Below are positions 14,568 through 48,490 of a DNA stretch of 64,000 nt, piece after piece; position 1 is the first letter of the stretch; each line of letters begins with the position of its first letter. Source of the DNA: Candidatus Iainarchaeum sp. (GTDB lineage Archaea > Iainarchaeota > Iainarchaeia > Iainarchaeales > JAXPJC01); contig JACPJC010000006.1 of NCBI GenBank assembly GCA_016187745.1, positions 26,747-90,746 on the forward strand. The letters run 5' to 3'. Below the pieces are notes generated by a model that did not search any database, was not told the DNA's origin, and saw only the letters and a list, made by a program, of their open reading frames with translations. The position numbers and the translations under genes are program-made.

Positions 14568-14599
14568 AGGGAAGGTATCGGAAACGCAGTTTCTGATTG
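14568..14599 (+). repeat. Type-1 30-nt palindromic element, copy a (leader of rpl3 operon)
   Basis: agggaaggtatcggaaacgcagtttctgattg. The core ATCGGAAAC-gca-GTTTCTGAT forms a 9-bp stem. It is flanked by aatgcag on both sides. Confidence 0.8.
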
Positions 14600-14641
14600 T
14601 GCTGTGCTGCAATGCAGTTTATATTAGCCTGGTGAATCTGA

Positions 14642-15760
14642 GTGACAAAGAAGCATAAGCCAAGAAGCGGAAGCTTGCAATTCTACCCCAGAGTGCGCTC
14701 TGCAAAGCCTGTCGCAAATTTCACAACATTCCCGAAAATAACGGATGGCGCATCAAAGCCCATGAGCTTTTTCGGATACAAGGCCGGAATGCTGCATGTG
14801 ATGGCGAAGGATTTGTATGACAAGTCCGCAACTTACGGGCATGAGCTGAGAATTCCCGCAACAATAGTTGAGGCGCCCCCCATGAAGGTTTTCGGAATCC
14901 GCGCATACGGGGATTCCTCAAAGGGAAAATATGCGCTTACTGAAATAATTGCCGAGAAATTTGACAAGCATCTGGGTAAGAGGATAAAAAACTTAAAGGG
15001 AAACGGCGATTTCGGGAAGATTGAAAAATTAAGGGACAGGGTTGTTGAAATAAGGCTTATTGCGCATGCGCAGCCGCACCTGACGGGAATAGGGAAAAAA
15101 ATGCCCGAGGTAATGGAAATTGCGCTTTCGGGGGATGTGAATGCGCAGACGGACTATGCTAAAAATATTCTGGGGAAAGAAATTTCAGCGAAGGATGTTT
15201 TTTCTGACAATGAGATTGTGGATGCGAGGGCCGTAACATTGGGAAAGGGATTCCAGGGCGTTGTGAAGCGCTTTGGTGTAAGAACATTGCGCAGAAAATC
15301 AAAGAAGGAAAGGATGGTTGGAAGCATAGGGCCATGGAACCCGAGCCTTGTGATGTGGACCGTTGCCCGCGCTGGACAAATGGGCTATCACGCAAGGGCG
15401 GAATACAACAAGCGCATACTTAAGATTTTTGAGAATCCCGCGGAGCTGAATCCGAGCTCGGGGCTTGAGGGCTATGGGACATTGAGGGGCACTGCAATTC
15501 TTGTCGCCGGCTCGCTGCCGGGGCACATAAAAAGGATTGTCGCGCTGCGCAAGGCGATAAGGAAGCCGCACATTGAAAGGAAATTGAGCGAAATTACATT
15601 CATATCAACAAGGCCTGAAATTGCAAAAACTTCTGAAGAGGAAGCCGCAGTGCATAAGGTAAGGGCTGAAAAGAAAGTTGAGAAGGAAGAGAAAAGCGTG
15701 AAGGATGAGATTGCAATGGCAGTAAAGGGGGAGAAGGAAAAGAAGGAAAAGGAGAAGTAA
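14642..15760 (+). CDS. rpl3: Ribosomal protein L3, with Lys/Glu-rich C-terminal tail
   Basis: uL3 homology across the ORF. GTG start. The C-terminal EKKVEKEEKSVKDE...KEKKEKEK extension is unusual. Confidence 0.9.
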   Translation: MTKKHKPRSGSLQFYPRVRSAKPVANFTTFPKITDGASKPMSFFGYKAGMLHVMAKDLYDKSATYGHELRIPATIVEAPPMKVFGIRAYGDSSKGKYALTEIIAEKFDKHLGKRIKNLKGNGDFGKIEKLRDRVVEIRLIAHAQPHLTGIGKKMPEVMEIALSGDVNAQTDYAKNILGKEISAKDVFSDNEIVDARAVTLGKGFQGVVKRFGVRTLRRKSKKERMVGSIGPWNPSLVMWTVARAGQMGYHARAEYNKRILKIFENPAELNPSSGLEGYGTLRGTAILVAGSLPGHIKRIVALRKAIRKPHIERKLSEITFISTRPEIAKTSEEEAAVHKVRAEKKVEKEEKSVKDEIAMAVKGEKEKKEKEK

Positions 15761-15769
15761 AAGCGGGAA

Positions 15770-16600
15770 ATGATTTTTATGAAAGAGGCTAACGTATTTT
15801 CAGTTTCTGGGGAAATGGCGCATTCCATAAAGCTGCCCGAGGTATTCAATGAGCCCTACCACCCTGAGCTTATAAAGCGCGCGGCGCTTTCCGCTATTTC
15901 AGCAAGATTCCAGCCCAAGGGGACATACCCCGATGCGGGAAGGGAAGTTGTTACTGAATACAGGAGTCTGCGCTCTCTCCCTGCAATGGAGCGCACTATG
16001 AATGTTGACAAGGCGCGCAAGCCCAGGACAAAACACAGGCGCGGGCTGCTTGCGGGAGATGTTGCAGCAATCCCGGGAGTTGTTGGAGGCCCAAAATCAC
16101 ACCCCCCTAAGGCGATTAAAACACTCCATGAGAGGATAAATGAGAAGGAGAGAAGGCTTGCAATAAAAAGCGCCATTGCCGCATCATGCGACAGGAAGCT
16201 TGTAATTGCGCACGGCCATAAGATTTCCGAAGGGATTGAGCTCCCGATAATTATTGAGAAGGGGATTGAGAAGCTGAAGAAAACAAATGAAGTGTGCAAA
16301 ATGCTCAAGGCGCTTAAATTATGGCAGGATGTGGAGCGCGCGAAAAAGAAGAAGCTGCGCTCAGGCAAGGCAAAAAGGCGCGGAAGGAAATACGCAAGAA
16401 GGAAAAGCGCGCTCATTGTTGTTTCTGGCAGCAGGGAAGGAATTTACAGGGCCGCAAGGAACATCCCTGGAATTGATGTGATTGAGCTGCGCAATTTGAA
16501 TGCGGAAGTTCTTGCTCCGGGCGCAAAGGCCGGAAGGCTTGTGATATGGTCCGAGAATGCAGTAAACGAACTTTCAGAAAAAGAAAAGGTAAGTGCTTAA
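15770..16600 (+). CDS. rpl4: Ribosomal protein L4
   Basis: uL4 homology. Conserved operon position. Confidence 0.9.
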   Translation: MIFMKEANVFSVSGEMAHSIKLPEVFNEPYHPELIKRAALSAISARFQPKGTYPDAGREVVTEYRSLRSLPAMERTMNVDKARKPRTKHRRGLLAGDVAAIPGVVGGPKSHPPKAIKTLHERINEKERRLAIKSAIAASCDRKLVIAHGHKISEGIELPIIIEKGIEKLKKTNEVCKMLKALKLWQDVERAKKKKLRSGKAKRRGRKYARRKSALIVVSGSREGIYRAARNIPGIDVIELRNLNAEVLAPGAKAGRLVIWSENAVNELSEKEKVSA

Positions 16601-17036
16601 AATGGCTGAAAAGAAAATCGCAAAGAAAGGGAAGGATGCTGAAAAGCAGAAGCCTGCGATTGCCAAGGCCGGGAAAAAGACAGCGGGGGAAAAGGCGGAA
16701 AAAAAAATTGAAAATGAAGCTGCGCAGAAGGAAAAGGCGCCGGAAAAACGCAGTTTTTCTGATATTGAGAAGGAGCTTAAGAATTTTGAAATAATTAAGT
16801 TCGCGCTCATAAGCGAGAAGGCAGTGAACATGATTGAAAGGGAAAACAAGCTGACATTCATAGTGAACCAGAGTGCGGACAAGCCCTCAATAAAAAGGGC
16901 GATTGAGGAGATGCACAAGGTGAAGGTAGATTCCGTGAAGGTAATAAGGGACAGGAAAGGCAGAAAGAAGGCGATTGTAAAAATAGGAAAGGGCTTCAAG
17001 GCAAGCGATGTTGCAACAAGGCTGGGTGTGATATAG
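16593..17036 (+). CDS. rpl23: Ribosomal protein L23, with K-rich N-terminal extension
   Basis: C-terminal uL23 domain (KFALISEKAVNMIERENKLTFIV...). Confidence 0.88.
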   Translation: MLKMAEKKIAKKGKDAEKQKPAIAKAGKKTAGEKAEKKIENEAAQKEKAPEKRSFSDIEKELKNFEIIKFALISEKAVNMIERENKLTFIVNQSADKPSIKRAIEEMHKVKVDSVKVIRDRKGRKKAIVKIGKGFKASDVATRLGVI

Positions 17037-17037
17037 C

Positions 17038-17757
17038 ATGGGAAAGAGACTTAAACAGCAGCGCAGGGGAAAGGGCAGCCCGATGTTCATAGCAAGGCAC
17101 GGCATTGCTGATGTCGAATATCTGCCAATAACTCCGGAACAGAATGAGGGAACGCTCAGGGGTAAGGTTGTTGATTTGGTTCCTGATAAAGTCAGGAGCG
17201 CTGTGCTTGCGGATATTTTGTTTGAGAACGGGCTGCGCTCATATATGATTGCGCCGGAAGGGATGTTTGTGGGGCAGGAACTTCATTACGGCAGGAAAGC
17301 GCCATTGGAAATAGGGAACGTACTGCCATTGAATGAGATTGCGGAGGGCTGCCCGATATTCAATATAGAAAAGCGCCCTGGAGATGGGGGGTGTTATATT
17401 AAAACTTCCGGTATTTATGGATATATTGTAACAAAGGAGCCTGGAAGGGTTTATGTAAAGCTGCCGAGCGGAAAAACGGTTGAGATTTCCCCGGAATCGC
17501 GCGCCACAATAGGGAATATTTCCGCGGGGGGAAGGACTGAAAAGCCCATGCTCAAGGCAGGAACGCATTATCATGCGATGCACGCAAAGGGCTACCATTA
17601 CCCCGGGGTAAGGGGCGTTGCAATGAATCCTGTTGACCATCCGTTTGGGGGCGCGCAGCACCATGCGGGAAAATCCAAGAGCGTTTCAAGGCATGCCGCT
17701 CCAGGGCAGAAGGTTGGGGCAATAGCAAGCAAGCGCACAGGGAGAACAAAGAGGTAG
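17038..17757 (+). CDS. rpl2: Ribosomal protein L2
   Basis: uL2 homology (GRNAGG..., HPFGGGQ-like region). Confidence 0.92.
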   Translation: MGKRLKQQRRGKGSPMFIARHGIADVEYLPITPEQNEGTLRGKVVDLVPDKVRSAVLADILFENGLRSYMIAPEGMFVGQELHYGRKAPLEIGNVLPLNEIAEGCPIFNIEKRPGDGGCYIKTSGIYGYIVTKEPGRVYVKLPSGKTVEISPESRATIGNISAGGRTEKPMLKAGTHYHAMHAKGYHYPGVRGVAMNPVDHPFGGAQHHAGKSKSVSRHAAPGQKVGAIASKRTGRTKR

Positions 17758-17763
17758 AGGCAA

Positions 17764-18171
17764 ATGGTAAAAAAGGATTTTGCATTCCGCGGGCATCCTA
17801 TTGAGGAACTGCTAAAGCTTTCTGACAAGGACTTTTCCAAGCTCATATGCTCAAGGTCCCGCAGGACTCTGTTGCGCAGCGGAATGGACAAGAAGATTGA
17901 GAAGAAAATCGAGAAGGCGCATGCGCTCTTGCAGCAGGGAAGGGAGGCAAAGCCCATCCGCACGCATCTGCGCAACATAATTGTTGTGCCGAGGATGGTC
18001 GGATTGAGGTTTGCAGTGCACAGGGGAAACACATTTGAGATTATAGGGATCATGCCGGAGATGCTCGGGCATTTCCTCGGGGAATTTGCGCTTACAAGGA
18101 AGAAGATGATGCACGGGAGAGCGGGAATCGGCGCGACAAAATCATCAACCGCGATAACCGCAAGAGGATAA
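17764..18171 (+). CDS. rps19: Ribosomal protein S19
   Basis: uS19 homology. Confidence 0.9.
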   Translation: MVKKDFAFRGHPIEELLKLSDKDFSKLICSRSRRTLLRSGMDKKIEKKIEKAHALLQQGREAKPIRTHLRNIIVVPRMVGLRFAVHRGNTFEIIGIMPEMLGHFLGEFALTRKKMMHGRAGIGATKSSTAITARG

Positions 18172-18183
18172 AGGGGAAGGAAA

Positions 18184-18660
18184 ATGGTAAAAAGGGATTA
18201 TAATTTTGATTTTTCCGCCGTAAATCCGAAAAGGAGCGCGAGGGCAATACTGGCAAACCAGCCGGTTTCGCTGAAATATTCCGTTGAGCTTTGCAGGGAA
18301 CTGAAGGGAAAAAGCACGAAGAACGCGGAGGCCTTCCTCAATGACCTGAAGGAAATGCGCGCGTTTTTGCCATTGAGGAAATACCGCAAGAAGGTTCCGC
18401 ATCGCGCCGGGGAGCCTAAAAGCAAGGCAAAGGCCGGGCGCTATCCCATAAAGGCTGCGGCGAAATTCCTGGATCTGCTGAAGCTTGTGAAGGCAAATGC
18501 GGATGTTAAAGGATTGGATGCGGGAAAGCTGCGAATAGTGCACCTGTTCGCTTCCCAGGGCTTTCACAGGAGAGGCATGCAGGCGCAGGGAAGAATCTCC
18601 GGAAAACAGCGCAAGAGAAAATCAACGCACCTTGAAATAGTCGTGCAAGAGGCGGGATAA
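18184..18660 (+). CDS. rpl22: Ribosomal protein L22
   Basis: uL22 homology. Confidence 0.88.
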   Translation: MVKRDYNFDFSAVNPKRSARAILANQPVSLKYSVELCRELKGKSTKNAEAFLNDLKEMRAFLPLRKYRKKVPHRAGEPKSKAKAGRYPIKAAAKFLDLLKLVKANADVKGLDAGKLRIVHLFASQGFHRRGMQAQGRISGKQRKRKSTHLEIVVQEAG

Positions 18661-19406
18661 TGATAGAAAAGGCATTCATCAGGCAGGGGATAAAGAATGT
18701 GCAGCTTGAGGATTACATGAGGAAGCAGCTTAAAAGCGCGGGATTCACGCGCCTTGAGATTGTCAAAACGCCTTTAGTAACGAGGATTGTTGTGAATGTG
18801 ACAAATCCCGGGCTTGCGATAGGGAAGGGCGGGCAGAACATAAGGACGCTTACAAAGGAGCTTGGGGAAAAATTCGGGATTGATAATCCGCAATTGGAAA
18901 TAAAGGAGATTGAAAAGCCGCAGCTTGACGCGCAGGCGATGTCGGATTTGCTTTCAAGCCTTATTGAAAGGGGATTCTCATGGAGGAGCGTTGCATTCAA
19001 GATTGTAAGGGATATAATGAACGCGGGCGCATTGGGAGTGGAAATAATAATTTCCGGAAAGCTCGGGGGGAAGGGCGCAAGGAAGAAAAAGCAGAGGATT
19101 GCGCTCGGATACATGAAGAAGGCGGGGGAGCAGACAAGGCTTGTTGATGCGGGAATGAAGACTTCTTACCCGAAGCAGGGCGCAATAGGAATAAAGGTAA
19201 AAATAATAAGGCCTGATGTGATGTTCCCGGATAAAATAAGGATAAGGGACGTAATAGCGAAGAAAAGGGCGGATGAGGAAAAGGAGAATGAGAGAATCGC
19301 AAAAAGCGCGGAAGACGCTGAAAAGGCGCAGGCAAAGGAAGCCCCTGTTGCTGAAGAGGCTGCTGTGAAGGGAGAGGCTGCAGTTAAAATAGAGGAAGGC
19401 AAGTGA
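18660..19406 (+). CDS. rps3: Ribosomal protein S3, with acidic/Lys-rich C-terminal tail
   Basis: KH domain and uS3 C-domain. Confidence 0.92.
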   Translation: MIEKAFIRQGIKNVQLEDYMRKQLKSAGFTRLEIVKTPLVTRIVVNVTNPGLAIGKGGQNIRTLTKELGEKFGIDNPQLEIKEIEKPQLDAQAMSDLLSSLIERGFSWRSVAFKIVRDIMNAGALGVEIIISGKLGGKGARKKKQRIALGYMKKAGEQTRLVDAGMKTSYPKQGAIGIKVKIIRPDVMFPDKIRIRDVIAKKRADEEKENERIAKSAEDAEKAQAKEAPVAEEAAVKGEAAVKIEEGK

Positions 19407-19407
19407 A

Positions 19408-19644
19408 ATGGCGCTTAAGATAAGGCAGATAAGGGAAATGGCGGTTCAGGAGGCAGAGGAGAAGCTGCTTGAGATGCGCGCTGACCTTGCGAAGGAGAAG
19501 GCGCTTGTGGCAAGCCACACGAAGCAGGAAAACCCGGGGAAGATAAGGGCGCTGCGCAGGGCCGTTGCAAAAATACTGACAATTGTCAATGAGAAGAAGA
19601 ATTCAGGCGATAAAAAAATAAAAAACAGGGGGAAAAGCGAATAA
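19408..19644 (+). CDS. rpl29: Ribosomal protein L29
   Basis: uL29 homology. Confidence 0.85.
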   Translation: MALKIRQIREMAVQEAEEKLLEMRADLAKEKALVASHTKQENPGKIRALRRAVAKILTIVNEKKNSGDKKIKNRGKSE

Positions 19645-19949
19645 TGGAAGAAGTCTGCCAGATATGCGGATTGCCTAAAAACATCTGCGTATGCACGCAA
19701 ATAACAAAGGAAGCGCAGAAAATCAAGGTAAGTGCGGTAAAGCGCGCATTCGGAAAGATAATAACGACAATATCCGGAATTGATGATGTGCAGACCGCAA
19801 AGGAGCTTGAAAAAATAATGAAAAGGAAGCTTGCGTGCGGCGGAACAACGAAGGGAAAGACAATAGAGCTTCAGGGGAATCATAAAAGGAAAATAAAGGA
19901 AATACTGGTGGAACAGGGATACAAGGGGGAATCAATAGATGACAATTAA
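19644..19949 (+). CDS. Translation initiation factor SUI1 (aSUI1/eIF1)
   Basis: SUI1 domain. Conserved L29-SUI1-Rpp29-S17 order. Confidence 0.85.
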   Translation: MEEVCQICGLPKNICVCTQITKEAQKIKVSAVKRAFGKIITTISGIDDVQTAKELEKIMKRKLACGGTTKGKTIELQGNHKRKIKEILVEQGYKGESIDDN

Positions 19950-20241
19950 ATATTTGATAAATGGGTCGAACCTTCCGGCGCACGAGCTCATAGGGCTGGA
20001 TGCGAAAGTGGTAAAAAGCGCGGATGTGAACAAGGTGGGGCTTTCAGGAAGGATTGTGGATGAGACAAGGAACATGTTTGAGATTGAGAAAAGGGGAAAA
20101 ACAATGAGGATTCCGAAGCGCGAGGTTGTTATTGAATTCAGGCTTTCGGGAAAAAGCCTTGGGAAAATTGAATGCAGCAGGATAATCTGCAGGCCCGAGG
20201 ACAGGATAAAGAATTATTTCAAAAAGGGCAGGGGCGCATAA
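19939..20241 (+). CDS. rnp1: RNase P protein subunit Rpp29 (Pop4)
   Basis: Rpp29 family sequence. Conserved position. Confidence 0.8.
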   Translation: MTIKYLINGSNLPAHELIGLDAKVVKSADVNKVGLSGRIVDETRNMFEIEKRGKTMRIPKREVVIEFRLSGKSLGKIECSRIICRPEDRIKNYFKKGRGA

Positions 20242-20243
20242 AA

Positions 20244-20570
20244 ATGGCTGAAGAGCAAAAAAAGGAAGTTATCGGAAACGCAGTTTCTGATTGCAAGGAT
20301 TTGAAATGCCCGGTTCACGGAAGCGTAAAAGTGAGGGGCAATATGTTTGAAGGAATTGCAATAAGGGCAAAGGCGCCGAAAACAGTGATTGTTGAGCGCT
20401 ATCTAATGCAGCATGTGAGGAAATACGAGAGATACAAGAAAGTTAGGTCGAGGATTACGGCGCACAAGCCGGACTGCATTCAGGTTGCTATCGGGGATAA
20501 AGTGAGGATTGGCGAAACGCGCAAGCTCAGCAAGACAAAGAGCTTTGTGGTTATGGAGGTGCTTAAGTAA
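20244..20570 (+). CDS. rps17: Ribosomal protein S17
   Basis: uS17 homology (MAEEQKKEVIGNAVSDCKDLKCPVHGSVKVRG...). The true start is the ATG at 20244 inside the longer listed ORF. Confidence 0.9.
   Translation: MAEEQKKEVIGNAVSDCKDLKCPVHGSVKVRGNMFEGIAIRAKAPKTVIVERYLMQHVRKYERYKKVRSRITAHKPDCIQVAIGDKVRIGETRKLSKTKSFVVMEVLK
20263..20293 (+). repeat. Type-1 30-nt element, copy b, lying inside the rps17 coding sequence (codons 7-16)
   Basis: aggaagttatcggaaacgcagtttctgattg encodes KEVIGNAVSDC. It is identical to the intergenic copies except for one base. Confidence 0.8.
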
Positions 20571-20968: not shown

Positions 20969-20987
20969 ATGATTTAAGTGTGATAAA

Positions 20988-25848: not shown

Positions 25849-26312
25849 AAATGTACGCCGCAATAATGGTAAGGGGATTGATAGGCGCGAAAAAGGACGC
25901 AAAAATGGCGATGAGGCTTATGCGCCTGAACAAGCAGAACCACCTTGTGCTGCTGCCTGAAAATGATAGCAACAAGGGAACGCTCGAGAAGGTCCAGAGC
26001 TATGTTACCTATGGAAAGATTGCGAATGATGTGCTTGCAGGGCTTGTTGAAAAATGGGCAAGGCTCATTGGAAATAAGAAAATTGATGCGGAGTTCCTGA
26101 AGAAAAACAAGTTCGGGAATTTCAATGAGCTTGCAAATGCTCTTATCGATGGGAAAACTTCGCTTGCGGAGCTGCAGATAAAGCCGGTGTTCAGGCTGCA
26201 TGCGCCGAGCAAGGGGTATGAGAGAAAGGGCACAAAAAAGCCTTTTTCACTAGGGGGCGCGCTTGGCCCGAGGGAGAATGAAATAAACAAATTGATTATG
26301 AGGATGATTTAG
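25845..26312 (+). CDS. rpl30: Ribosomal protein L30
   Basis: uL30 homology. Confidence 0.88.
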   Translation: MKMYAAIMVRGLIGAKKDAKMAMRLMRLNKQNHLVLLPENDSNKGTLEKVQSYVTYGKIANDVLAGLVEKWARLIGNKKIDAEFLKKNKFGNFNELANALIDGKTSLAELQIKPVFRLHAPSKGYERKGTKKPFSLGGALGPRENEINKLIMRMI

Positions 26313-26397
26313 AATGAAGGAAGGGAATCAGGATTAACCTAAAACTGAAGGGAAACCTTGGTTTCCCTGCGGTTTGGATGAGGATGATTTAGAATGA
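26298..26397 (+). repeat. 20-bp direct repeat (atgaggatgatttagaatga) flanking a 60-bp insert between rpl30 and rpl15
   Basis: Exact copies at 26298-26317 and 26378-26397. The repeat spans the rpl30 stop codon and the rpl15 start codon. Confidence 0.85.
26318..26377 (+). repeat. Type-2 about 60-nt element, copy A (contains hairpin GGGAAACC-ttgg-TTTCCC)
   Basis: aggaagggaatcaggattaacctaaaactgaagggaaaccttggtttccctgcggtttgg. It has a homolog at 32323-32384. Confidence 0.75.
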
Positions 26398-28210: not shown

Positions 28211-28244
28211 CTAAGTGGAAGTTTGAGGAAACGGAGGGTTTCTG

Positions 28245-28739
28245 ATGTGGCAACTGATAAATCCTACAATTGATATTCTGCTGATTTCAATAGGCATAGC
28301 TGCGGTATCGCAGCTGTTCCAGATGAAATTTACAGACAGGAAAAAAATGCGAGCAATGCAGAAGGAAATGAAGGACAAGCAGAAGAGAATGCGCGAGCTT
28401 GCGGGAAAAACCGATGCTAACGCGCTTGCGGAAATCAAGAAACTCGAGCAGGAGATGATGCATGCGCTCAATGAGAGCATGAAGCACAGCATGGGCAGCA
28501 TGATAAAGCTTATGCCGCTTACAGTAATTTTCCTGTTTGTTTACTGGCTGCTTGGCAGCGCCTATGGGAGCAGCGCGGTGCCAACGCTTTTCCCAATAAG
28601 CATAGTCAAGCCCGCAATGGGCTGGATATGGTGGTATGTGATATGCGTATTTATAGCAAGCATTGTAATAAGCGCATTAACGAATGCTGTTGAGAACAGG
28701 ATGGAATCAAAAGCGCAGGGAGTTGCAAAAAATGGTTGA
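28245..28739 (+). CDS. DUF106-family membrane protein (archaeal YidC/Oxa1-like insertase homolog)
   Basis: 3-TM protein with a coiled-coil cytoplasmic loop in the conserved post-secY slot. No adk lies between them. Confidence 0.6.
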   Translation: MWQLINPTIDILLISIGIAAVSQLFQMKFTDRKKMRAMQKEMKDKQKRMRELAGKTDANALAEIKKLEQEMMHALNESMKHSMGSMIKLMPLTVIFLFVYWLLGSAYGSSAVPTLFPISIVKPAMGWIWWYVICVFIASIVISALTNAVENRMESKAQGVAKNG

Positions 28740-31396: not shown

Positions 31397-31450
31397 ATAT
31401 TAATTTTTCCTGAAAGAAGGGAAATTAATAAGAAACCGGAGGTTTCTTAT

Positions 31451-32200
31451 ATGGATGTAAAAAAAATTGCACAGAAGGAAAATACCCTTAAATTCCTTGT
31501 AAGGGGGGTAAATTCCGAATTTGCGAATTCCCTGCGCAGGGCAATAATGGCTGATGTGCCCATACTTGCGATAGAGGATGTTTCAGTATATGAAAATTCC
31601 TCAATATTATATGATGAGTTCCTTACCCAGAGGCTTGCATTGATTCCATTGACAACAGATTTGAAAACATACAAGAAGGGTGAATCCGCTAAAATGAGCA
31701 TCGATAAGGAAGGGCCCTGCACGGTCTATTCAAAGGACATAAAATGCAGCGATCCGAAAATTGAGGTAGCGGACAAGCGCATTCCGATTGTCAAATTGCT
31801 GAAGGACCAGAAATTAAAGCTTGAGATGAAGGCAGTAATGGGCTTCGGGAAGGAGCATGCGAAATGGCAGCCTGCGGTTGTTTCCTACAGGCAGCTTGCA
31901 ACAATAAGCATTGGGAAGGACTGCGACCTGTGCGGGAAATGCATTGAGAACTGCGCAAAGAAGCTTCTGGAGGCAAAGGCAAAGAAGATTGTCCTGGAAA
32001 CGCCGATTGAATGCGATTTGTGCGGAAAATGCAGGGATGTGTGCAACCTGCAGCAGCTTGCGATAGAATACAGCAAGGATGATTTTTTGTTCACTGTGGA
32101 AAGCCACGGGGCCCTTGAGGCCTCTGAAATAGTGGAAAAGGCTGCGGAAATCCTGAAAGACAGGAATTCGGACTTCAGGAAGGAGATTAAAAAATTATAA
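31451..32200 (+). CDS. rpoD: DNA-directed RNA polymerase subunit D (with ferredoxin-like Cys domain)
   Basis: Rpb3/RpoD homology. CDLCGKCIENC...CDLCGKCRDVC cluster. Confidence 0.9.
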   Translation: MDVKKIAQKENTLKFLVRGVNSEFANSLRRAIMADVPILAIEDVSVYENSSILYDEFLTQRLALIPLTTDLKTYKKGESAKMSIDKEGPCTVYSKDIKCSDPKIEVADKRIPIVKLLKDQKLKLEMKAVMGFGKEHAKWQPAVVSYRQLATISIGKDCDLCGKCIENCAKKLLEAKAKKIVLETPIECDLCGKCRDVCNLQQLAIEYSKDDFLFTVESHGALEASEIVEKAAEILKDRNSDFRKEIKKL

Positions 32201-32288
32201 CATTACAATCAGAAACTGCGTTTCCGATACCTTCCTTTGTTTCAAGGGAAACTCGGACGAGGAGATTAATAAATTATAACATTACAAT
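32184..32288 (+). repeat. About 27-bp direct repeat (gagattaa[a/t]aaattataacattacaat) flanking a 52-bp insert at the rpoD 3' end
   Basis: Copies at 32184-32209 and 32262-32288 have 1 mismatch. Each spans the last 5 codons and the stop of rpoD. Confidence 0.8.
32206..32236 (-). repeat. Type-1 30-nt element, copy c (opposite orientation)
   Basis: The reverse complement is ggaaggtatcggaaacgcagtttctgattg. Confidence 0.8.
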
Positions 32289-32322
32289 TATTATGGGAAA
32301 GCCCGGTGGAATCCTGAACCTT

Positions 32323-32384
32323 AAGGGAAAGGGTCAGGATTAGCCTAAAACTGGGGAAAACCGTAGGTTTTCCGCGGTTTGGAT
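32323..32384 (+). repeat. Type-2 element, copy B, ending exactly at tRNA 5' end
   Basis: aagggaaagggtcaggattagcctaaaactggggaaaaccgtaggttttccgcggtttggat is about 80% identical to 26318-26377. Confidence 0.75.
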
Positions 32385-32526
32385 GCAGGGGTACCCAAGC
32401 GGCCAAAGGGGCAGGTGAGTTTTGATTTGAAAAAAACAAAATTCTGCCAAACTTAAGGTCTCTTGAAAAAAGGATGGGAAATCCTGTGGCTTAGTGCCTT
32501 CAAGGGTTCAAATCCCTTCCCCTGCA
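32385..32526 (+). tRNA. Type II tRNA (Leu-like; A73, long variable arm) with intron(s); anticodon tentatively UAA
   Basis: Acceptor GCAGGGG/CCCCTGC. 3-bp D-stem CCC/GGG with an 11-nt loop. T-arm AAGGG-TTCAAAT-CCCTT. Variable arm GGC-TTAGT-GCC. The precursor is 142 nt. The only good anticodon loop is CTTAAGG at 32452-32458, which would require two introns (32417-32451 and 32459-32481). Confidence 0.7.
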
Positions 32527-32535
32527 CACCAATCC

Positions 32536-33882: not shown

Positions 33883-33895
33883 CAAACATGGGGTT

Positions 33896-33917
33896 AATAA
33901 GGGCATTATGCCATTAT
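33896..33917 (+). promoter_or_regulatory. Palindromic motif AATAAGGGCATTATGCCATTAT upstream of rpoN
   Basis: Near-perfect inverted repeat. The same motif occurs at 40678-40700. Confidence 0.5.
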
Positions 33918-33954
33918 AGCAGAAATCAAAGAGGTAAAATTCAGAGGTGAAAAA

Positions 33955-40570: not shown

Positions 40571-40677
40571 GCGGATTAGTTTGATTTAAAAACCTTAAGG
40601 CGCAGGGTATATTATACGTTTTGATTCTGGGTTGCATCTTTTTTTGATAAAACCTGTGATAAAACGATGAACCCCGC

Positions 40678-40700
40678 AATAAGGGCATAATGCCCTTATG
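40678..40700 (+). promoter_or_regulatory. Palindromic motif AATAAGGGCATAATGCCCTTAT flanked by GAACCCC direct repeats, upstream of rpl7ae
   Basis: Perfect 10-bp inverted repeat. GAACCCC at 40669-40675 and 40700-40706. Confidence 0.5.
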
Positions 40701-40753
40701 AACCCCAAGCAGGAAAATTGTTTGGGCAGGGGCGAGAAAAGGAGGTTTCTGAT

Positions 40754-42031: not shown

Positions 42032-42033
42032 GG

Positions 42034-43773
42034 CTATTTCTTTTCCCTTAATTCTGAGTCCTGCGCATATTCAAGATTGCGCTTCAGCGCGAATTCGGCT
42101 TTCTGGAGCTCCGCGCCCAAATAGAGCGCGTGGGAAGTGTTTATCTGCGCCTTAAATGCAAGCTGCTCATAAATCTCGCGCGCGCTTGCGCCGCAGATTT
42201 TCTCAATCTCGCGGTTTGTTTCGGGATGCAGGAGCGCAATTGAGATTTTCCCATCCTCAATTGCAATGACATAATTGCCCCTTGGGTCGGAATAATCTAT
42301 TTTGGGTTTGCGGAACTTTGAGAGCATCTCCTCAACTTGCTTGTAGTAATGCGCATAAATCTGGGCGCTGCCAGAGATTATTGTAATTATCCCTGTTGGC
42401 AATCCGATTGCGTCTGCGATTGTTTTCTGTATTGCCGCGCATCCGTAAGCGTTTTCAGGCCAGCCCTGCACCATGTCATGAGACCTGAAATAAACCATCA
42501 GATTCAGCCTTTCATCCTGCACTATCGGGTGCAGCAGAACAAGGCAGGGGCTGCTCTTGTGCTTGCGCATAAGCTCATCGGAAACATGCCATGTGATTGC
42601 AACGCCTGCCTTTGAGTAGGGGTCGCGCTTCAGCGCATCTATAATATCTGCAATCTGGTCAATTTCACAGCCCTTTTCCAGGTATTTCACATTTGCATCA
42701 AGGTGCGCGCCCTTTCCGAACTCAAAATCCTTGTAGGCAGGGCTGTTTGCAAGCTCCTTGACAACGCCTGCGTCTTCAACCAAATATGCGCGCAGCTTGT
42801 TGCCGTAAGTGTAGGCCTTTCCCTCGGGAAGAAGCGGGGACAAGACCTCTTTTTGGTATGCAAGGATTTTTTCATTTGTAAGAGGGACAAGGAATGGATT
42901 CAGGGACAAACCGCCATTCTGCGGGCTGTGGATTACCGCAACCAAATTGTTTATTTCCTTTACCCGGCGGTCAGTGTTTGCGTTCATCAGATTCCTTTTT
43001 CCATAGCGGGAGATCGCGTGCATTATTTCAATCCAGGTTTCGGGGATTGAATTTCCTGAAACAAGAAGCGCGCTTCCCTCATGGGGGAATTCCTCGGCGC
43101 TCGGTTCATAGGGAAAAATTTGTGGCGTGTCTGAAAACGGCTGCTTCCTTTCAGCTTCCTTCATTATCCTGTTGGCTTCGGCAATCTTCTCCTCAAGGGA
43201 TGCCCTTGGCATTCTTGAATTCAGATCAATTAATTCCACAGAAGCCATTATTCCGTTTATTGCTTCCGAGGGAATATTCCTGTCGAAATAAACCGCGCTT
43301 TCAAATCCCTGAAGCTTGCGCCCGGAATTTATGCCCTTCTCGAAAAATGCCCTTATTGAGTTTGCGCTTGTCTGCTGGACTGGCGAATTTGGTGAAAGGG
43401 TTTTCTGCTGCTCCGCGGCGGAATACTCGCTTCCAAGAACTATCATGTAGCGTATGAAGGGGTTTGCAAGGATGTTGCGCGCCATTCCTTCAAGCCCCGC
43501 GGGAGTGTAAAAATTGCTCGCAATCGCAAGCCTTTCCTTTTCCAGTTTTGGCAGAATCGCATCGCGCATTGTCCAGAGGAAGGTAACTGCAAAATCCGCA
43601 TTTGTAATGCGCGTTTCGTTCCTTTCGGGAAATGCTATCCTGTCCCTAACGCTAACGGGCCAGCCCTTTGCGCCCGAGCTGCCAACAAGCCCGCGCATAG
43701 CATTTAGAATCTGTTCATCAGAAGGCATAGCCAGCTCCCAATAAGAATAATCCGAATAACCCTTAAAAAGCAT
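42034..43773 (-). CDS. Thymidylate synthase (ThyA) family protein with about 230-aa N-terminal extension of unknown function
   Basis: The C-terminal 330 aa carry ThyA motifs (NDRR-like region, SSPC nucleophile Cys, RSHDMVQGWPENAYGCAAIQ...GLPTGIITIISGSAQIYAHY). The N-terminal approx. 230 aa match no known family. Confidence 0.7.
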   Translation of the reverse strand: MLFKGYSDYSYWELAMPSDEQILNAMRGLVGSSGAKGWPVSVRDRIAFPERNETRITNADFAVTFLWTMRDAILPKLEKERLAIASNFYTPAGLEGMARNILANPFIRYMIVLGSEYSAAEQQKTLSPNSPVQQTSANSIRAFFEKGINSGRKLQGFESAVYFDRNIPSEAINGIMASVELIDLNSRMPRASLEEKIAEANRIMKEAERKQPFSDTPQIFPYEPSAEEFPHEGSALLVSGNSIPETWIEIMHAISRYGKRNLMNANTDRRVKEINNLVAVIHSPQNGGLSLNPFLVPLTNEKILAYQKEVLSPLLPEGKAYTYGNKLRAYLVEDAGVVKELANSPAYKDFEFGKGAHLDANVKYLEKGCEIDQIADIIDALKRDPYSKAGVAITWHVSDELMRKHKSSPCLVLLHPIVQDERLNLMVYFRSHDMVQGWPENAYGCAAIQKTIADAIGLPTGIITIISGSAQIYAHYYKQVEEMLSKFRKPKIDYSDPRGNYVIAIEDGKISIALLHPETNREIEKICGASAREIYEQLAFKAQINTSHALYLGAELQKAEFALKRNLEYAQDSELREKK

Positions 43774-43874
43774 TCCCTACAATAGTTATTACAGAATAGC
43801 GCTCTTCTTTTTGGCTTTGCATATTGTTCTGAGTTGCTTGTTCGAAATTGAAAGTTTTAAACTGGTGAGCTGAA

Positions 43875-45635
43875 ATGAATGCAATAAGGCAGCCCATAAT
43901 TGTTGTTATGGGGCATGTGGACGCTGGAAAGACAAGCCTGCTTGACCGCATTAGGGGCACAACTGTTGCGGCGCGCGAGGCGGGCGCAATAACCCAGCAT
44001 ATTGGCGCTACGGAAGTCCCTGTAGAAATAATAAGCAGAATTTCCGGCGCGCTGCTCGGGAAATACGGCTTCAAATTGAACATTCCAGGGCTGCTGTTCA
44101 TTGACACGCCTGGGCATGAGGCATTTACGCATTTGCGCGAGAGGGGGGGGAGCATTGCGGATTTGTGCGTGCTTGTAGTGGATGCAATAAAGGGATTGCA
44201 GGAGCAGAGCTTTGAGGCGCTGAATATTTTAAGGACATTCAAGACCCCGTTCATTGTTGCAATGAACAAAATAGACAATATTGCGGGATGGAAGACCGCG
44301 GATGCGAGCTTCACTGCAAATCTTGCGCAGCAGAACGCATATGCGCTTGAGGCGCTTGACAAGAAGTTATATGAAGTTGTGGGGCAGCTGCACGCAAGGG
44401 GATTCAATTCCGAGAGGTTTGACCGCTGCGAGAATTTTACGCAGCAGATTCCGATAATCCCGGTGTGCTCGAAATCGGGGGAAGGGATTGCCGAAGTGCT
44501 TGTGTTTTTGTCGGGATTGAGCCAGAAATTCCTGGAAAGCGAGCTGGCGCTGCATGTGAAGGGCGCGGCGCGCGGGAGCGTGCTTGAGGTAAATGAGGAG
44601 CGGGGATTGGGGACAACGATTGACATTATTTTATACGATGGAACTCTGCACGCAAAGGAGGAAATTGCGGTTCTCGGAAGGGCGGGGGTCATAACAACGA
44701 AAGTGCGCGCAATATTGAAGCCCAGGGCGCTTGAGCAGATGGGAACAGGGGAAAAATTCTTCAATGTGCTGGAAGCGCATGCGGCTTCGGGAATAAAAAT
44801 TTCCGCGCCCCTTCTTGAGAATGCAATTGCGGGCTCCCCGTTCATTGCGGTAAGCTCGGAAAAGGACATTGAGGAACTTAAAAAAGAATCAAGGGAAATA
44901 AAAATCGAAAGCGATGTTGCAGGGGTTGTAATAAAGGCGGATACGCTTGGAAGCTTGGAAGCCATGGTCAAGCTGCTGCAGAATGCGGGGCTTAAAATAA
45001 GGTTTGCGGATCTTGGCGCAATAAGCAGGAATGATGTGATGTGCGCCCTTGCGGTAAGGGAGAATGATGCGGAAAAGGCGGTAATATTCGCATTCAATGT
45101 GCCTGCCCTTCCGGAAGCGCTGCAGGAGGCCGAAAAGAAGGGAATAAAAATATTCTCTGGGAACGTTATATACAGGCTTATTGAGGATTACACTCAATGG
45201 ATTGAGCTTTTCAAGGAGCAGGCAAGGAAGCAGAAGGAAGCGGAGCTCATTTACCCCTTTGCCTTCAAAATACTTCCAGGCATGGTCTTCAGGAACAGCA
45301 AGCCGGCTGTTGCGGGAATCCATGTGACAAGCGGAAAAATAAAGCCCGGAGTGGAAATTATGAACGAGAATGGAGAAATTGTTGGGAAGGTGGAATCGCT
45401 GCAGTCGGAGGGAAAAACGCTTCATGAGGCCGGGAAGGGGGATGAAGTCGCAATCGCGATTTCCGGAGCGACAATAGGGAGGCAGATAAGCGAGAATGAG
45501 ACCCTGTATTCTGCAATAACCCAGAAGGGGCTTGCAAAAATCCTGCAGAACGCGGACATGTTCAGTTCTGAGGAAATTGAGCTTGCGAAAAAATTGTTTG
45601 AAAAACTAAAAAGCACTGAAGAAGAGGGCAATTGA
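43875..45635 (+). CDS. infB: Translation initiation factor aIF5B (IF2 homolog)
   Basis: GHVDAGKTSLLD GTPase plus IF2 domains. No intein. Confidence 0.92.
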   Translation: MNAIRQPIIVVMGHVDAGKTSLLDRIRGTTVAAREAGAITQHIGATEVPVEIISRISGALLGKYGFKLNIPGLLFIDTPGHEAFTHLRERGGSIADLCVLVVDAIKGLQEQSFEALNILRTFKTPFIVAMNKIDNIAGWKTADASFTANLAQQNAYALEALDKKLYEVVGQLHARGFNSERFDRCENFTQQIPIIPVCSKSGEGIAEVLVFLSGLSQKFLESELALHVKGAARGSVLEVNEERGLGTTIDIILYDGTLHAKEEIAVLGRAGVITTKVRAILKPRALEQMGTGEKFFNVLEAHAASGIKISAPLLENAIAGSPFIAVSSEKDIEELKKESREIKIESDVAGVVIKADTLGSLEAMVKLLQNAGLKIRFADLGAISRNDVMCALAVRENDAEKAVIFAFNVPALPEALQEAEKKGIKIFSGNVIYRLIEDYTQWIELFKEQARKQKEAELIYPFAFKILPGMVFRNSKPAVAGIHVTSGKIKPGVEIMNENGEIVGKVESLQSEGKTLHEAGKGDEVAIAISGATIGRQISENETLYSAITQKGLAKILQNADMFSSEEIELAKKLFEKLKSTEEEGN

Positions 45636-45690
45636 GAAATAAAATAAGAAAAATAAGAATAATTTCAACAAATCAAACGGAGGAGAAAAA

Positions 45691-46182
45691 ATGCAATTAT
45701 CAATTTCAGATCCGAAAAGCGGAAAAGCATATTCAAAAAAAATAGAGGAAGCGGGAATATTCCTCAACAAAAAGCTCGGGGACACTGTCGAGCTTTCTGC
45801 AATAGGGATGCAGGGATACAGGGCGAAAATTGCGGGAGGCTCGGACAAGTGCGGATTTCCCATGCACCCCGGGGTTTCAGGGCTTGCGAGAAAAAGGCTT
45901 TTCATTGCGGAGGGAACAGGCTTCAATGCGGAGAAGCGCGGGGAAAGGAAGCGCAAGAACGTAAGGGGAAATGTAATCGGCGCTGACATAAATCAGCTGA
46001 ACTTAAGGGTTTCCGAATATGGAAGTGTTCCCTTGAGCGAGCTGTTTGCGGGGGAAATTGCAAAGCCGAAGGAAGAGAAGAAGTCAGCAAAGGAAGCGCT
46101 GGTTGAGCAGAGCCTTGAGCAGGTTGGAAAGGTAGAAATTGCCGGCGACTCAAGCAAAATAAAGGGGAAGGCGAAGGGTTAG
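45691..46182 (+). CDS. rps6e: Ribosomal protein S6e
   Basis: eS6 homology. Confidence 0.85.
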   Translation: MQLSISDPKSGKAYSKKIEEAGIFLNKKLGDTVELSAIGMQGYRAKIAGGSDKCGFPMHPGVSGLARKRLFIAEGTGFNAEKRGERKRKNVRGNVIGADINQLNLRVSEYGSVPLSELFAGEIAKPKEEKKSAKEALVEQSLEQVGKVEIAGDSSKIKGKAKG

Positions 46183-46185
46183 TGA

Positions 46186-47403
46186 ATGCGTACAGCTGAA
46201 AACCAGTCAAATGAGCCGTTGCAGGCTGAGGTCAATATAGGCATGGTGGGGCACGTTGACCATGGGAAAACAAGCCTTACTAAGGCAATAACCGGAAAGT
46301 GGACTGACACGCATTCCGAGGAGCTGAAGCGCGGAATTTCCATAAGGCTTGGGTATGCGGATGCGGTCTTCTACAAGTGCGAAAAATGCTCTGGCGCAGG
46401 GGCATACGCAACAAAGCCGAAATGCGGAAAGTGCTCGGGAAATGCGAAGCTCCTTAGGAAAGTGAGCTTTGTTGATGCGCCCGGGCATGAAACACTTATG
46501 ACCACAATGCTTTCAGGAGCCGCGCTAATGAACGGCGCGATTCTTGTAATTGCTGCAAATGAGCCCTGCCCGCAGCCGAGGACTGCGGAGCACTTGACTG
46601 CACTGAAGATGTCGGGGATAAACAGCATTGTTGTTGCGCAGAACAAGATAGACCTTGTATCAAGGGAAAAGGCGCTGGAATCCTTCAGGGAAATAAGGGA
46701 ATTCCTGAAGGAATATGATGCGGAGGATGCGCAGATAATCCCTGTTGCGGCGCACTTCAATGCGAACATTGACGCGCTTGTTGAGGCGCTGGAAAAGGCA
46801 ATTCCCTCCCCAAAATTCGAATCCGGGAAGCCGCTGAGGATGTTTATTGCAAGAAGCTTTGACATAAACAGGCCCGGAAGCAAGGCAGAGGAGCTAAAGG
46901 GCGGGGCGCTCGGGGGCTCAATAACGCTTGGCTTTGCAAAGGTCGGGGATGAAATTGAAATAGCCCCGGGAATTGACGGGAAGAAATTGAAAACAAAAAT
47001 CTCAAGCCTGAGCACAGCAAATTACGAATTGAAGGAGGCAAAGCCCGGGGGGCTTATAGCAATAGGGACAACTCTTGACCCTTCAATCACAAAAAACGAC
47101 CAGATGCGCGGGCAGGTTGTGGGGGCGCTCAACACGCTTCCGGAGCCGGTTTCAAGGGTGAAGCTCGAGGTGCATGAGATGAAAAGGCTGCTTGAGGAGA
47201 TAGGGAAAATAAAGGTGAATGAAACTGTCGTGCTTACTGTTGGAACTGCAAGCATTGCTGCGAGCGTTGCAAAAATGGCAGGGAGCAACAAATTCGAATT
47301 CCTGCTCAAATCGCCTGTTGTTGTAGAGCCCAAACAGAAGGTTGCAATAAGCAAGCTGGTAAAATCGGCATGGCGCCTTGCGGCGTATGGTGTTGTTTCA
47401 TGA
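46186..47403 (+). CDS. eif2g: Translation initiation factor aIF2 gamma
   Basis: GHVDHGKTSL, zinc knuckle CEKCSG...CGKCSG, and EF-Tu-like domains. Confidence 0.92.
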   Translation: MRTAENQSNEPLQAEVNIGMVGHVDHGKTSLTKAITGKWTDTHSEELKRGISIRLGYADAVFYKCEKCSGAGAYATKPKCGKCSGNAKLLRKVSFVDAPGHETLMTTMLSGAALMNGAILVIAANEPCPQPRTAEHLTALKMSGINSIVVAQNKIDLVSREKALESFREIREFLKEYDAEDAQIIPVAAHFNANIDALVEALEKAIPSPKFESGKPLRMFIARSFDINRPGSKAEELKGGALGGSITLGFAKVGDEIEIAPGIDGKKLKTKISSLSTANYELKEAKPGGLIAIGTTLDPSITKNDQMRGQVVGALNTLPEPVSRVKLEVHEMKRLLEEIGKIKVNETVVLTVGTASIAASVAKMAGSNKFEFLLKSPVVVEPKQKVAISKLVKSAWRLAAYGVVS

Positions 47404-47792
47404 GGATAGCAATTGACGCGAATATGCTGCTTGCAATCGCAAATGAGAAGATTGACGTTTTCGGGCAGATAAGGGATGAGTTCGGAAAAACTGCTGAAAT
47501 CATAATTCCGAGGCAGGTAATTGATGAGCTGAAAATCCTTTCGAAGCGGAACAAAAAAAATGAAAATGCGGTGAAAATTGCAATGCAGGAAATTGAAAAG
47601 AATGATGCGCGCATTCGGGAAGTAAATGCAAAAAATGCCGATGAGGCGCTGATTGCGCTTGCAAGGGAAGGAACTGCTGTTGCAACAAATGATTCCGCGC
47701 TCAAGAAAGAGGTTAAAAAACTTAACGCTGGGATAATATTTACAAGAAAAGGGCGATTTTTGGCATTTTCTTCTATGAATCTTCTGTTTTAA
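47400..47792 (+). CDS. PIN-domain protein (conserved eif2g-rpoE neighbour)
   Basis: N-terminal RIAIDANML acidic PIN motif. Start overlaps the eif2g stop. Confidence 0.7.
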   Translation: MRIAIDANMLLAIANEKIDVFGQIRDEFGKTAEIIIPRQVIDELKILSKRNKKNENAVKIAMQEIEKNDARIREVNAKNADEALIALAREGTAVATNDSALKKEVKKLNAGIIFTRKGRFLAFSSMNLLF

Positions 47793-47817
47793 TGGATTTA
47801 AATGGAGTTAGAGAAAA

Positions 47818-48438
47818 ATGTATGCACTTTGTGAAATCCGGGATACAATACGCGTGCCCCCTGACAAGTTTGAAAGCAACCTGGAGAAGGCGATGCTGAA
47901 AATAATCCAGGAGGAGTATGAGGGGCTGGTGGATGAGGACCTTGGGGTTATTGTTGCGGTCAATGATGTGAAGAACATCGGCGAGGGAAAAGTAATTCCG
48001 GGGGAGGGCGCGGCGTATTACTCCGCCGACTTTGAATTGCTTGTTTACAAGCCAGAGGTTCAGGAAGTTGTGGAGGGATTTGTTTCCGAGGTTGCGGAAT
48101 TCGGGGCTTTCCTGCGCACGGGCCCTGTGGAAGGCCTTATACACGTTTCGCAGATAATGGATGATTACATAAATTATGACGGGAAACTGCCGGGGTTTGT
48201 GGGAAAATCCTCAAAGAAGAAGCTGGTTGTAAATGATGAGGTAATTGCAAGGGTAATTTCAGTGAGCCTGAAGGGAAGCATTGCGGAATCAAAGATAGGA
48301 CTGACAATGAGGCAGCCCTTCCTTGGAAAAGAGGAATGGCAGAAGATTGATGAGAAGCTCAAGCTCAGGGAAAAGCCGAAGCCGCAGGAAAAGAAGCAGG
48401 TGAAGCAGGCGCCGGACAGAAGGCCTGAGAAAAAGTAA
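47818..48438 (+). CDS. rpoE: RNA polymerase subunit E' (Rpb7)
   Basis: Rpb7 N-domain plus S1 domain. Basic C-terminal tail. Confidence 0.88.
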   Translation: MYALCEIRDTIRVPPDKFESNLEKAMLKIIQEEYEGLVDEDLGVIVAVNDVKNIGEGKVIPGEGAAYYSADFELLVYKPEVQEVVEGFVSEVAEFGAFLRTGPVEGLIHVSQIMDDYINYDGKLPGFVGKSSKKKLVVNDEVIARVISVSLKGSIAESKIGLTMRQPFLGKEEWQKIDEKLKLREKPKPQEKKQVKQAPDRRPEKK

Positions 48439-48459
48439 GGGAAGCTAATAATGAAAATG

Positions 48460-48490
48460 AGGAAGGTATCGGAAACGTAGTTTCTGATGA
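48460..48490 (+). repeat. Type-1 30-nt element, copy d (between rpoE and spt4)
   Basis: aggaaggtatcggaaacgtagtttctgatga has one C-to-T change relative to the other copies. It is flanked by atgaaa on both sides. Confidence 0.75.

Follow-up and report, generated by a model that had tools for sequence, protein, structure and literature searches.

Bacterial repetitive extragenic palindromic sequences and bacterial interspersed mosaic elements (REP/BIME) are imperfect palindromes of 20-40 nt, which occur in many copies between operon genes and are non-autonomous, being mobilised by RAYT enzymes. Rickettsia palindromic elements (RPEs) are longer (100-150 bp), are found in Rickettsia only and are inserted in frame into protein-coding genes of a reduced genome, where they are translated. 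Here we describe a dispersed hairpin element of about 40 nt, which recurs together with a ~62-nt relative in a 64-kb stretch of DNA (64,000 nucleotides of contig JACPJC010000006.1; the window) from a metagenome-assembled genome of Candidatus Diapherotrites, a DPANN archaeon.

Two further kinds of mobile sequence and one kind of intron come close to this element. SINE-type and tRNA-targeting retroelements (Ty3, Dictyostelium TRE), which are not known in archaea, have a fixed 3' end, a variable 5' side and variable target duplications. MITEs (miniature inverted-repeat transposable elements), including Correia elements and the archaeal MITEs and palindrome-associated transposable elements (PATEs), are small and non-autonomous, show insertion polymorphism and are occasionally co-opted for expression signals. 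A prokaryotic census reported MITEs to be taxon-specific and to reach a high density in some DPANN genomes (PMC11602168). Archaeal tRNA introns also spread, and intron 'transposition' has been described in Thermoproteales (PMC4090602). The repeats of the window are probably copies of a small hairpin element that is mobile but non-autonomous and behaves like REPs, RPEs or MITEs. Three of its traits are unusual: domains share its 30-nt core, it is associated with the ends and introns of tRNAs, and its target duplications are long and variable.

A hairpin element family with at least eight members

The 30-mer GGAAGGTATCGGAAACGCAGTTTCTGATTG occurs at four places in the window, and chance is excluded as an explanation by the finding of no match in 100 shuffles. 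The similarity extends beyond 30 nt, to 40 nt at 93% between copies c2 and c3 and to 36 nt at 94% between c1 and c3. A short-type copy is built from an A-rich tract, a GGAAGG box and then UAUCGGAAAC, a loop and GUUUCUGAU, which form a hairpin of 9-10 bp with a fixed G·U pair. Pairing of AUCGGAAAC with GUUUCUGAU gives a stem of 9 bp with one G·U and a 3-nt loop, and minimum-energy prediction returns this fold for each of the four forward-strand contexts, as an earlier interpretation made from the DNA letters alone (the sequence-only reading) had supposed. Further support for the pairing is provided by compensatory changes (UAUC/GAUA to UACC/GGUA; G·U to A-U) and by stem-top changes that are tied to loop length. 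The stem is a near-palindrome, so that the RNA hairpin hardly differs between the two orientations: at one and the same position, one has G·U and the other A·C. G·U and A·C pairs are isosteric once the A is protonated.

A covariance model was built from 40 family members and scores c1 to c4 with 51-55 bits. By means of this model and manual comparison, two diverged short-type copies (c5 and c6) and two long-type elements of ~62 nt were found. The window thus contains at least eight elements, six of the short and two of the long type. All four near-identical copies of the sequence-only reading are real, though its list was incomplete and its coordinates were off by 1-2 nt. Seven of the eight elements lie within the 20-kb ribosomal protein (r-protein) cluster; the eighth is located in the rpoE'-spt4-S24e cluster.

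Insertion polymorphism among close relatives

Relatives for the comparison of sites were found via homologs of S17, RpoD and RpoE'. Two of them, sp.A (loci including L095 and L096) and sp.B (locus L098), were aligned with the window over ~13 kb of the r-protein cluster, where they are 91% and 79% identical, respectively. Empty orthologous sites were found in close relatives for seven of the eight elements, all but c1; the clearest cases are described below for c2, c3, c4, c5, c6 and the first long-type element. Conversely, sp.A carries insertions not present in the window (between S13 and S4, between L3 and L4, plus a further composite copy in the leader of L3), as does sp.B (L5-S14 and L6-L32e). 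Target duplications of 6, ~30, 15 and ~22 nt were seen at the sp.A and sp.B insertions. Nearly every indel of at least 24 nt in the alignment is one of these elements. Over all sites the duplications measured 0-5 (rps17), 6, 15, 18, ~22 and 29-30 nt, a range that is not fixed. These comparisons show repeated, recent insertion of the short element and its ~62-nt relative at operon junctions, in leaders, beside a tRNA and at the 5' coding end of rps17. The mobile palindromic unit with recent copying, one of two options offered by the sequence-only reading, is supported by empty sites and target duplications. Its proposed flank repeats, aatgcag and atgaaa, were not confirmed as target duplications: the visible ones are 29 nt (c3), 18 nt (26300/26380) and at most CTGA (rps17). 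Microhomologies were noticed at several junctions (GGATGA at 26376-26385, ATTG at c3 and GGAAAC at c4).

Copy c2 (20253-20291, forward; core repeat 20264-20293, one mismatch) is a 39-nt in-frame insertion in rps17 (20244-20570), and the insert would correspond to residues 4-16 of S17, EQKKEVIGNAVSD. The peptide EVIGNAVSDC is encoded within the repeat, as reported before, but by codons 8-17 plus the last base of codon 7 (ATG at 20244) and not by codons 7-16. The site is empty in L105, where ATGGCTGAA is directly followed by TGCAGC, and the target duplication comprises CTGA at most (0-5 nt). Most Diapherotrites S17 proteins begin with MAEC.D..CP and lack the extension. Relatives share the rps17 segment only in part: besides the empty L105, sp.A has 3 additional nt in the loop, by which the peptide is changed (GIGNEGFLIC) and the nucleotides are kept, and the sp.B element holds a nested palindrome of 51 nt, in frame (L098 1455-1505). 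Constraint on the segment acts on the nucleotides rather than on the peptide, and the element is an intruder in rps17, not the model for the other copies.

Nested AT-rich palindromes of 51-52 nt represent a second kind of insert, situated between the GGAAGG box and the hairpin of short-type copies. Apart from the sp.B case they were seen at about 2450-2500 of L095 and in the S11-rpoD spacer of L104, at the same relative position.

Copy c3 lies in reverse orientation after rpoD (32181-32288 including duplications; insert 32210-32259; core 32206-32235, exact). It is a 50-nt insert between two copies of the 29-nt rpoD 3' end (32181-32209 and 32260-32288; one mismatch). The first copy holds the rpoD stop codon (32198-32200), and c3 starts 6 nt past the stop. 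The 89% identical locus L103 has one uninterrupted AGGAGATTAAAAAGTTATAACATTACAAT here; at the same site a forward long-type element is found in L104, and L102 carries another long-type. Read on the forward strand, 32206-32244 forms the complement of the remaining copies.

Long-type elements consist of AAGGGAAAGG, a small hairpin and then AAACUG-GGGAAACC-loop-GGUUUCCC-GCGGUU; a comparison of four copies shows two compensatory pairs. The first (26318-26379, forward) is inserted between L30 (stop codon 26310-26312) and L15 (ATG 26394). A perfect target duplication of 18 nt, GAGGATGATTTAGAATGA, borders it on either side (26300-26317 and 26380-26397). Its site is empty in sp.A (L096) and sp.B (L098). 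The second (32323-32384, forward) ends at the first base of a tRNA. It reaches from about the predicted transcription start (TATA-like box AATTATTAT at 32286-32294, start placed by spacing) to the RNase P site of the tRNA; in L103 a different subfamily sits at this place. Such an extent would fit either an origin from a processed leader RNA or a preference for the tRNA 5' end as target. The idea that the long type is a complete pre-tRNA leader was rejected, as it holds for the window and L103 only and short-type leaders elsewhere show variable promoter distances. The adjoining tRNA (32385-32529, forward), read from the sequence, contains an intron and a long variable arm and is conserved in L103. 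It was missed by ARAGORN and at Rfam gathering thresholds and gave only a weak match to the tRNA/tmRNA clan.

Copies at translation start signals and in the rpl3 leader

Copy c4 (48446-48503, forward; core 48461-48490) has three mismatches to the 30-mer, one of them within the 21-nt core, in the loop. It is situated between the rpoE' stop codon (48436-48438) and the spt4 ATG (48501). Insertion brought a new Shine-Dalgarno sequence (AAAGGTG) and a new spt4 ATG and replaced a 9-nt GGAAACGTG of the relatives, with a net gain of 49 nt. In L109 and L110 the empty site is a 13-nt rpoE'-spt4 spacer with a GTG start, and L111 is similar.

The diverged copy c5 (28217-28246, forward; 13.3 bits) fills the SecY-EMC3 spacer as GGAAGTTTGAGGAAAC-GGAGG-GTTTCTGAT, so that the Shine-Dalgarno-like GGAGG forms the loop and the ATG of the downstream gene (28245) is placed at the hairpin foot. 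It is present in sp.A; sp.B has an empty 10-nt spacer. Copy c6 (31411-31450, forward; 16.6 bits, fold z -3.3) occupies the S11-rpoD spacer. Its lower stem shows compensatory changes (UAAG/CUUA), and again GGAGG is in the loop and the start codon (rpoD ATG, 31451) at the hairpin foot. It is absent from L103 (20-nt spacer), and the same segment of ~55 nt is inverted in L102 and L104.

Copy c1 (14561-14599, forward; core 14570-14599, exact; 51.6 bits) is located in the 5' leader of the rpl3 operon. Its end lies 43 nt before the GTG start codon of L3 (14642), and it forms part of a longer stem (14562-14611; -24 kcal/mol, z -3.3). In the sp.A ortholog the flanks are almost identical, and 5 of the 8 nt of GGTATCGG are replaced by the c5-like GCTTGAGG, which points to an exchange of sequence among copies. 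This leader has a further hairpin apart from c1, GTATCCCTCGCGAACCGCACGGGATA at 14500-14528; it is situated just downstream of a TATA-like box (14473-14490), and is kept in sp.A.

Gene context, further inserts and assembly breaks

The window follows the archaeal cluster order L3...L15-SecY...S13-S4-S11-RpoD, then the tRNA and L18e/L13/S9. Farther along, eIF2-gamma, a PIN protein, RpoE', Spt4, S24e and S27ae are encoded; the tRNA ligase RtcB is encoded as well, and there are no rRNA genes.

A second copy of the 40 nt that close rtcB (11405-11444) is found at 12030-12069, with 95% identity. Between the repeats lies a 585-nt insert with a ribbon-helix-helix-type antitoxin (11505-11753) and a RelE/ParE-like toxin (11750-12013), a cassette insertion with a 40-nt target duplication. 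In sp.A a 350-nt cassette with one gene (85-residue open reading frame; L095 2017-2379) is found upstream of the L3 promoter with a 13-nt flanking repeat, AAAACCTTTTTAA; the window is empty at this site (about 14445-14460). Both gene cassettes start with a GGAAG(G/T)..AT box like the GGAAGGTAT of the element (11481-11491; L095 2030-2042), a resemblance that could be due to chance or mark a 5' signal in wider use in this genome. Another palindrome, similar to AATAAGGGCATTATGCCCTTAT, occurs three times in differing orientations, at 33889-33920 (between S9 and rpoN), 40676-40707 and 43327-43357.

Eight independent Logan assemblies from other runs contain the rps17 copy, and one contig stops exactly at c1, as a repeated 31-mer would lead one to expect. 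Short-read contigs of the Diapherotrites lineage (L102, L103, L104 and L003) often end within or beside elements, and assemblies are therefore fragmented at r-protein operons.

The core in other archaea and in bacteria

The pattern TATCGGAAAC-N3-6-GTTTCTGAT was found in 85 stretches when one genome per GTDB species was scanned, compared with ~17 expected by chance at equal base frequencies. A GGAAGG box lies upstream in ~38 distinct matches, and a scan of JGI metagenomes with the box included yielded 65 stretches. Complete genomes with the core include Pacearchaeota CP061211.1 and the 742-kb contig Ga0315282_10000005. In viral contigs one match was obtained, a tRNA-Ser flank of the bathyarchaeal type.

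DPANN carriers include Micrarchaeota/Burarchaeum, Woesearchaeota and Pacearchaeota. Here the element is placed 0-4 nt 5' of mature tRNAs, at the 3' end of a tRNA intron, or inverted at the intron 5' end. CUGAU, which forms its 3' end, directly borders the 5' end of the mature tRNA in L016, L056, L067, L075, L084 and L088 and the tRNA 3' exon in L025, L032, L067 and L089; CUGAU always faces the tRNA or exon. In Bathyarchaeia all copies seen are inverted and follow a tRNA 3' end at a distance of 1-24 nt (tRNAs for Pro, Ser, Ala, Glu, Gly, Leu, Phe, Thr and Arg), where they carry CCTTCC and a T-run. In L122 the element sits inside the 3' end of tRNA-Pro, with a 22-nt duplication of that 3' end.

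In bacteria of the candidate phyla radiation (CPR), namely Staskawiczbacteria and a Parcubacteria group bacterium, the core forms the centre of a dispersed imperfect palindrome of ~125 nt, TTAATCGCGAAGCG...GAGCTTCATT (L015, L028, L035, L043, L052, L063, L066, L083, L086, L087 and L092). The copy in L035 (4324-4446), with a length of 2 mod 3, splits an ABC-ATPase gene. Insertions at protein N-termini were also observed: unrelated genes carry the element in the same frame as rps17 (L141, MKAAAKEGIGNAVSDYEKCSEC; L157, MMGKEGIGNVVSD), and pilin-like genes carry it in another frame in their signal peptides (L023 and L053). Some copies are located at gene junctions, a few bases before the Shine-Dalgarno sequence.

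Other identities considered

Keyword searches of the literature found no description of the element, and literal sequence searches returned only unrelated primers. Rfam gave nothing meaningful, either for the whole window at gathering score or for the c3/tRNA region and one CPR copy at E-value thresholds. A box C/D sRNA was rejected, as only a D-like CUGA is present and Rfam snoRNA matches (E = 1.3-3) are far below gathering score; CPR bacteria are not known to have a box C/D system. A CRISPR mini-array or off-target spacer at c3 was dismissed since the 29-nt 'repeat' is the 3' end of rpoD in duplicate, present just once in L103, and the window has no cas gene. No terminator-like site was called at c3 and the reverse-orientation hairpin is not the predicted fold, which speaks against an intrinsic terminator. 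Ends of the IS200/IS605 type do not fit insertions with target duplications and lack a second end. A promoter role was rejected in view of the varying distance between the TATA-like box and the motif. By eye, the motif order or structure did not fit a hammerhead or other ribozyme core, a kink-turn, C/D boxes, or mimicry of 16S helix 45 or of 23S rRNA. In the last case, a likeness to an E. coli segment was not matched by the B. subtilis sequence and was dropped. For the tRNA-Ile intron of L067, one manual attempt gave no canonical bulge-helix-bulge motif.

Discussion

A small mobile hairpin element remains the probable identity of these repeats. Some insertions duplicate 18-30 nt of target and thereby preserve the upstream stop codon and the downstream Shine-Dalgarno sequence and start codon; host genes therefore survive. 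The copies would be near-identical because they are young and exchange sequence. In forward orientation the element offers one open reading frame and no T-run, and would thus be tolerated in operons and even translated. In reverse orientation it presents the hairpin, CCUUCC and a U-rich segment, and is seen mainly after the last gene or after tRNAs. Copies c5 and c6 may be older ones co-opted as intercistronic spacers, which expose GGAGG in their loop and have the start codon positioned at the foot of the hairpin. Copying presumably depends on a trans-acting mechanism. Copy-in by template switching or target priming, rather than by a classical DDE transposase, is suggested by the variable duplications of 6-40 nt, the junction microhomologies and the diverse cargo.

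Several observations weigh against a mobile element. A mobilising enzyme or autonomous partner was found neither in the window, which encodes no transposase, integrase, reverse transcriptase or Cas protein, nor beside 45 copies, around which an all-against-all comparison of open reading frames revealed no recurring protein family. The element has no terminal inverted repeats; its sole inverted repeat is the central hairpin, and there is no inverted partner copy nearby. For c1 the relatives offered no empty-site comparison. Exact flanking repeats of at least 10 nt accompany only 3 of 95 short-type copies overall, and the long target duplications are confined to recent insertions in the Diapherotrites lineage; most copies elsewhere show no detectable duplication. 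The location of seven of the eight window copies in translation and transcription operons could reflect function and not insertion bias. In Bathyarchaeia the uniform position after tRNAs resembles a fixed functional feature or extreme targeting rather than random hopping. A non-coding core of 30 nt that is near-identical across archaeal phyla and CPR is atypical compared with taxon-specific MITEs.

A possible though less probable alternative is that the repeat is a conserved cis-acting RNA module of the translation apparatus, a wobble hairpin bound by a conserved RNA-binding protein or nuclease. Such a module would mark sites of processing or stability at tRNAs (leader, trailer, intron border) and before cistrons, and its spread in r-protein operons would be selected rather than selfish. 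The apposition of CUGAU to tRNA 5' ends and 3' exons, the location of all bathyarchaeal copies after tRNA 3' ends, the hairpin that is nearly the same in both orientations, the start codons exactly at the hairpin foot of c5 and c6, the enrichment in r-protein operons and the identity across phyla are all in line with it. However, close relatives do not keep the positions, one copy is presumably translated inside rps17, and in CPR the core centres a dispersed 125-nt palindrome, one copy of which breaks the ABC-ATPase frame. Distances to promoters and start codons also vary, and at c3 the reverse-orientation hairpin is not the predicted fold. A more general role is possible: the hairpin may serve as a spacer with structure, as a signal for processing or stability, or as a trailer that resembles a terminator behind tRNAs. 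The strict bathyarchaeal placement and the cross-phylum identity favour such a role.

We consider it rather unlikely that no dedicated mobile element exists and that hairpins are merely favoured donors in error-prone replication restart, with microhomology-mediated template switching and local duplication of the target. Target duplications from 6 to 40 nt, the microhomology at 26376-26385, c3 and c4, and the presence of differing element types at one site would follow from such a process, and the same signature surrounds unrelated cargo, namely the toxin-antitoxin pair at rtcB (40 nt) and the one-gene cassette of sp.A (13 nt). Template switching leaves unexplained, however, why one 30-nt sequence is retained across phyla, why it is exactly apposed to tRNA ends, and why the rps17 insertion has no long duplication.

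Antisense control, by which c3 in the rpoD 3' untranslated region would pair with the leaders of rpl3 and spt4 and with the 5' coding region of rps17 and so couple the expression of RNA polymerase and ribosome, is very improbable. The antisense relation noted by the sequence-only reading is true as sequence, with near-perfect complementarity over 30-40 nt, and c3 lies directly past the rpoD stop codon on the sense strand. A built-in circuit is unlikely, as c3 is missing in the 89% identical L103, is replaced by a forward long-type element in L104, and all partner copies are themselves recent insertions. An autoregulatory r-protein leader, in which an r-protein such as S17 or L7Ae would recognise the hairpin upstream of spt4, in its own mRNA and in the leader of rpl3, is less probable still: c1 and c4 do lie in 5' leaders, c2 at the rps17 5' end, and the extended c1 stem is stable, but the empty sites for c2 and c4 already largely refute it, the lower stem of c1 is lost in sp.A, the hairpin has no kink-turn-like internal loop and no Rfam match, and the related idea of a leader hairpin mimicked by the rps17 mRNA is not supported, as positions are not kept among 79-91% identical relatives, most Diapherotrites S17 proteins lack the segment and the core in other phyla is attached to tRNA genes, not to r-protein leaders.

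A mobile hairpin element may, more speculatively and with rather low likelihood, belong to a so far undescribed, cross-domain class of tRNA-linked mobile RNA or DNA elements that spans DPANN archaea, Bathyarchaeia and CPR bacteria. Its ~30-nt wobble stem would be read by a conserved enzyme and released from pre-tRNA leaders, trailers or introns at processing sites. SINE-like or template-switch copying would then return it beside tRNAs, into anticodon loops, where introns would be made, and into highly expressed operons.

If repeated insertion is the correct interpretation, most of the structural change in the best conserved gene cluster of these reduced genomes goes back to a single tiny element, which also lengthens a universal ribosomal protein and alters Shine-Dalgarno and start signals. 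Such an element would further provide a specific way for introns and leaders to be acquired by tRNA genes of archaea. Conservation of 30 nt across phyla implies a shared, very specific interacting enzyme or frequent exchange among co-resident ultrasmall microbes. In practice, the repeats break short-read assemblies and mislead gene callers, which report N-terminal extensions and split genes and miss tRNAs.

Comparison with known systems

With REP/BIME the element shares its size, palindromic form, copy number, position between operon genes and non-autonomous nature, as well as a mismatch that tells the strands apart and a possible influence on mRNA stability. REPs are extragenic and species-specific, start with 5' GTAG, are accompanied by a RAYT gene and make no target duplication. 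Unlike them, the element here is also found in coding sequence and tRNA introns, has a cross-domain core and shows some duplications of 18-30 nt; a RAYT/Y1 HUH gene was not seen in the 64-kb window. Small size, insertion polymorphism and occasional co-option for expression signals connect it with MITEs, from which it differs by the lack of terminal inverted repeats around a body, of a fixed-length target duplication and of taxon specificity. No related insertion sequence is present in the window.

The in-frame cases, that is rps17, ferredoxin-like and other N-termini and the pilin-like signal peptides, recall RPEs, as does the reduced genome, with translation presumed here. The unit of ~40 nt is far from the 100-150 bp of RPEs, is tRNA-linked, and occurs in archaea and CPR rather than in Rickettsia. 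A fixed 3' end, a variable 5' side and variable target duplications are shared with SINE-type and tRNA-targeting retroelements, and so is the proximity to tRNA genes: copies lie 0-4 nt from tRNA 5' ends, and the second long-type element spans roughly from transcription start to RNase P site. The window encodes no reverse transcriptase, and as to copying through an RNA intermediate the likeness is circumstantial. Finally, as in the spread of archaeal tRNA introns, related sequences are common to the introns of different tRNAs and to tRNA leaders; the module described here differs in that it is also found in mRNAs, operon junctions and bacterial genomes and inserts with target duplications.

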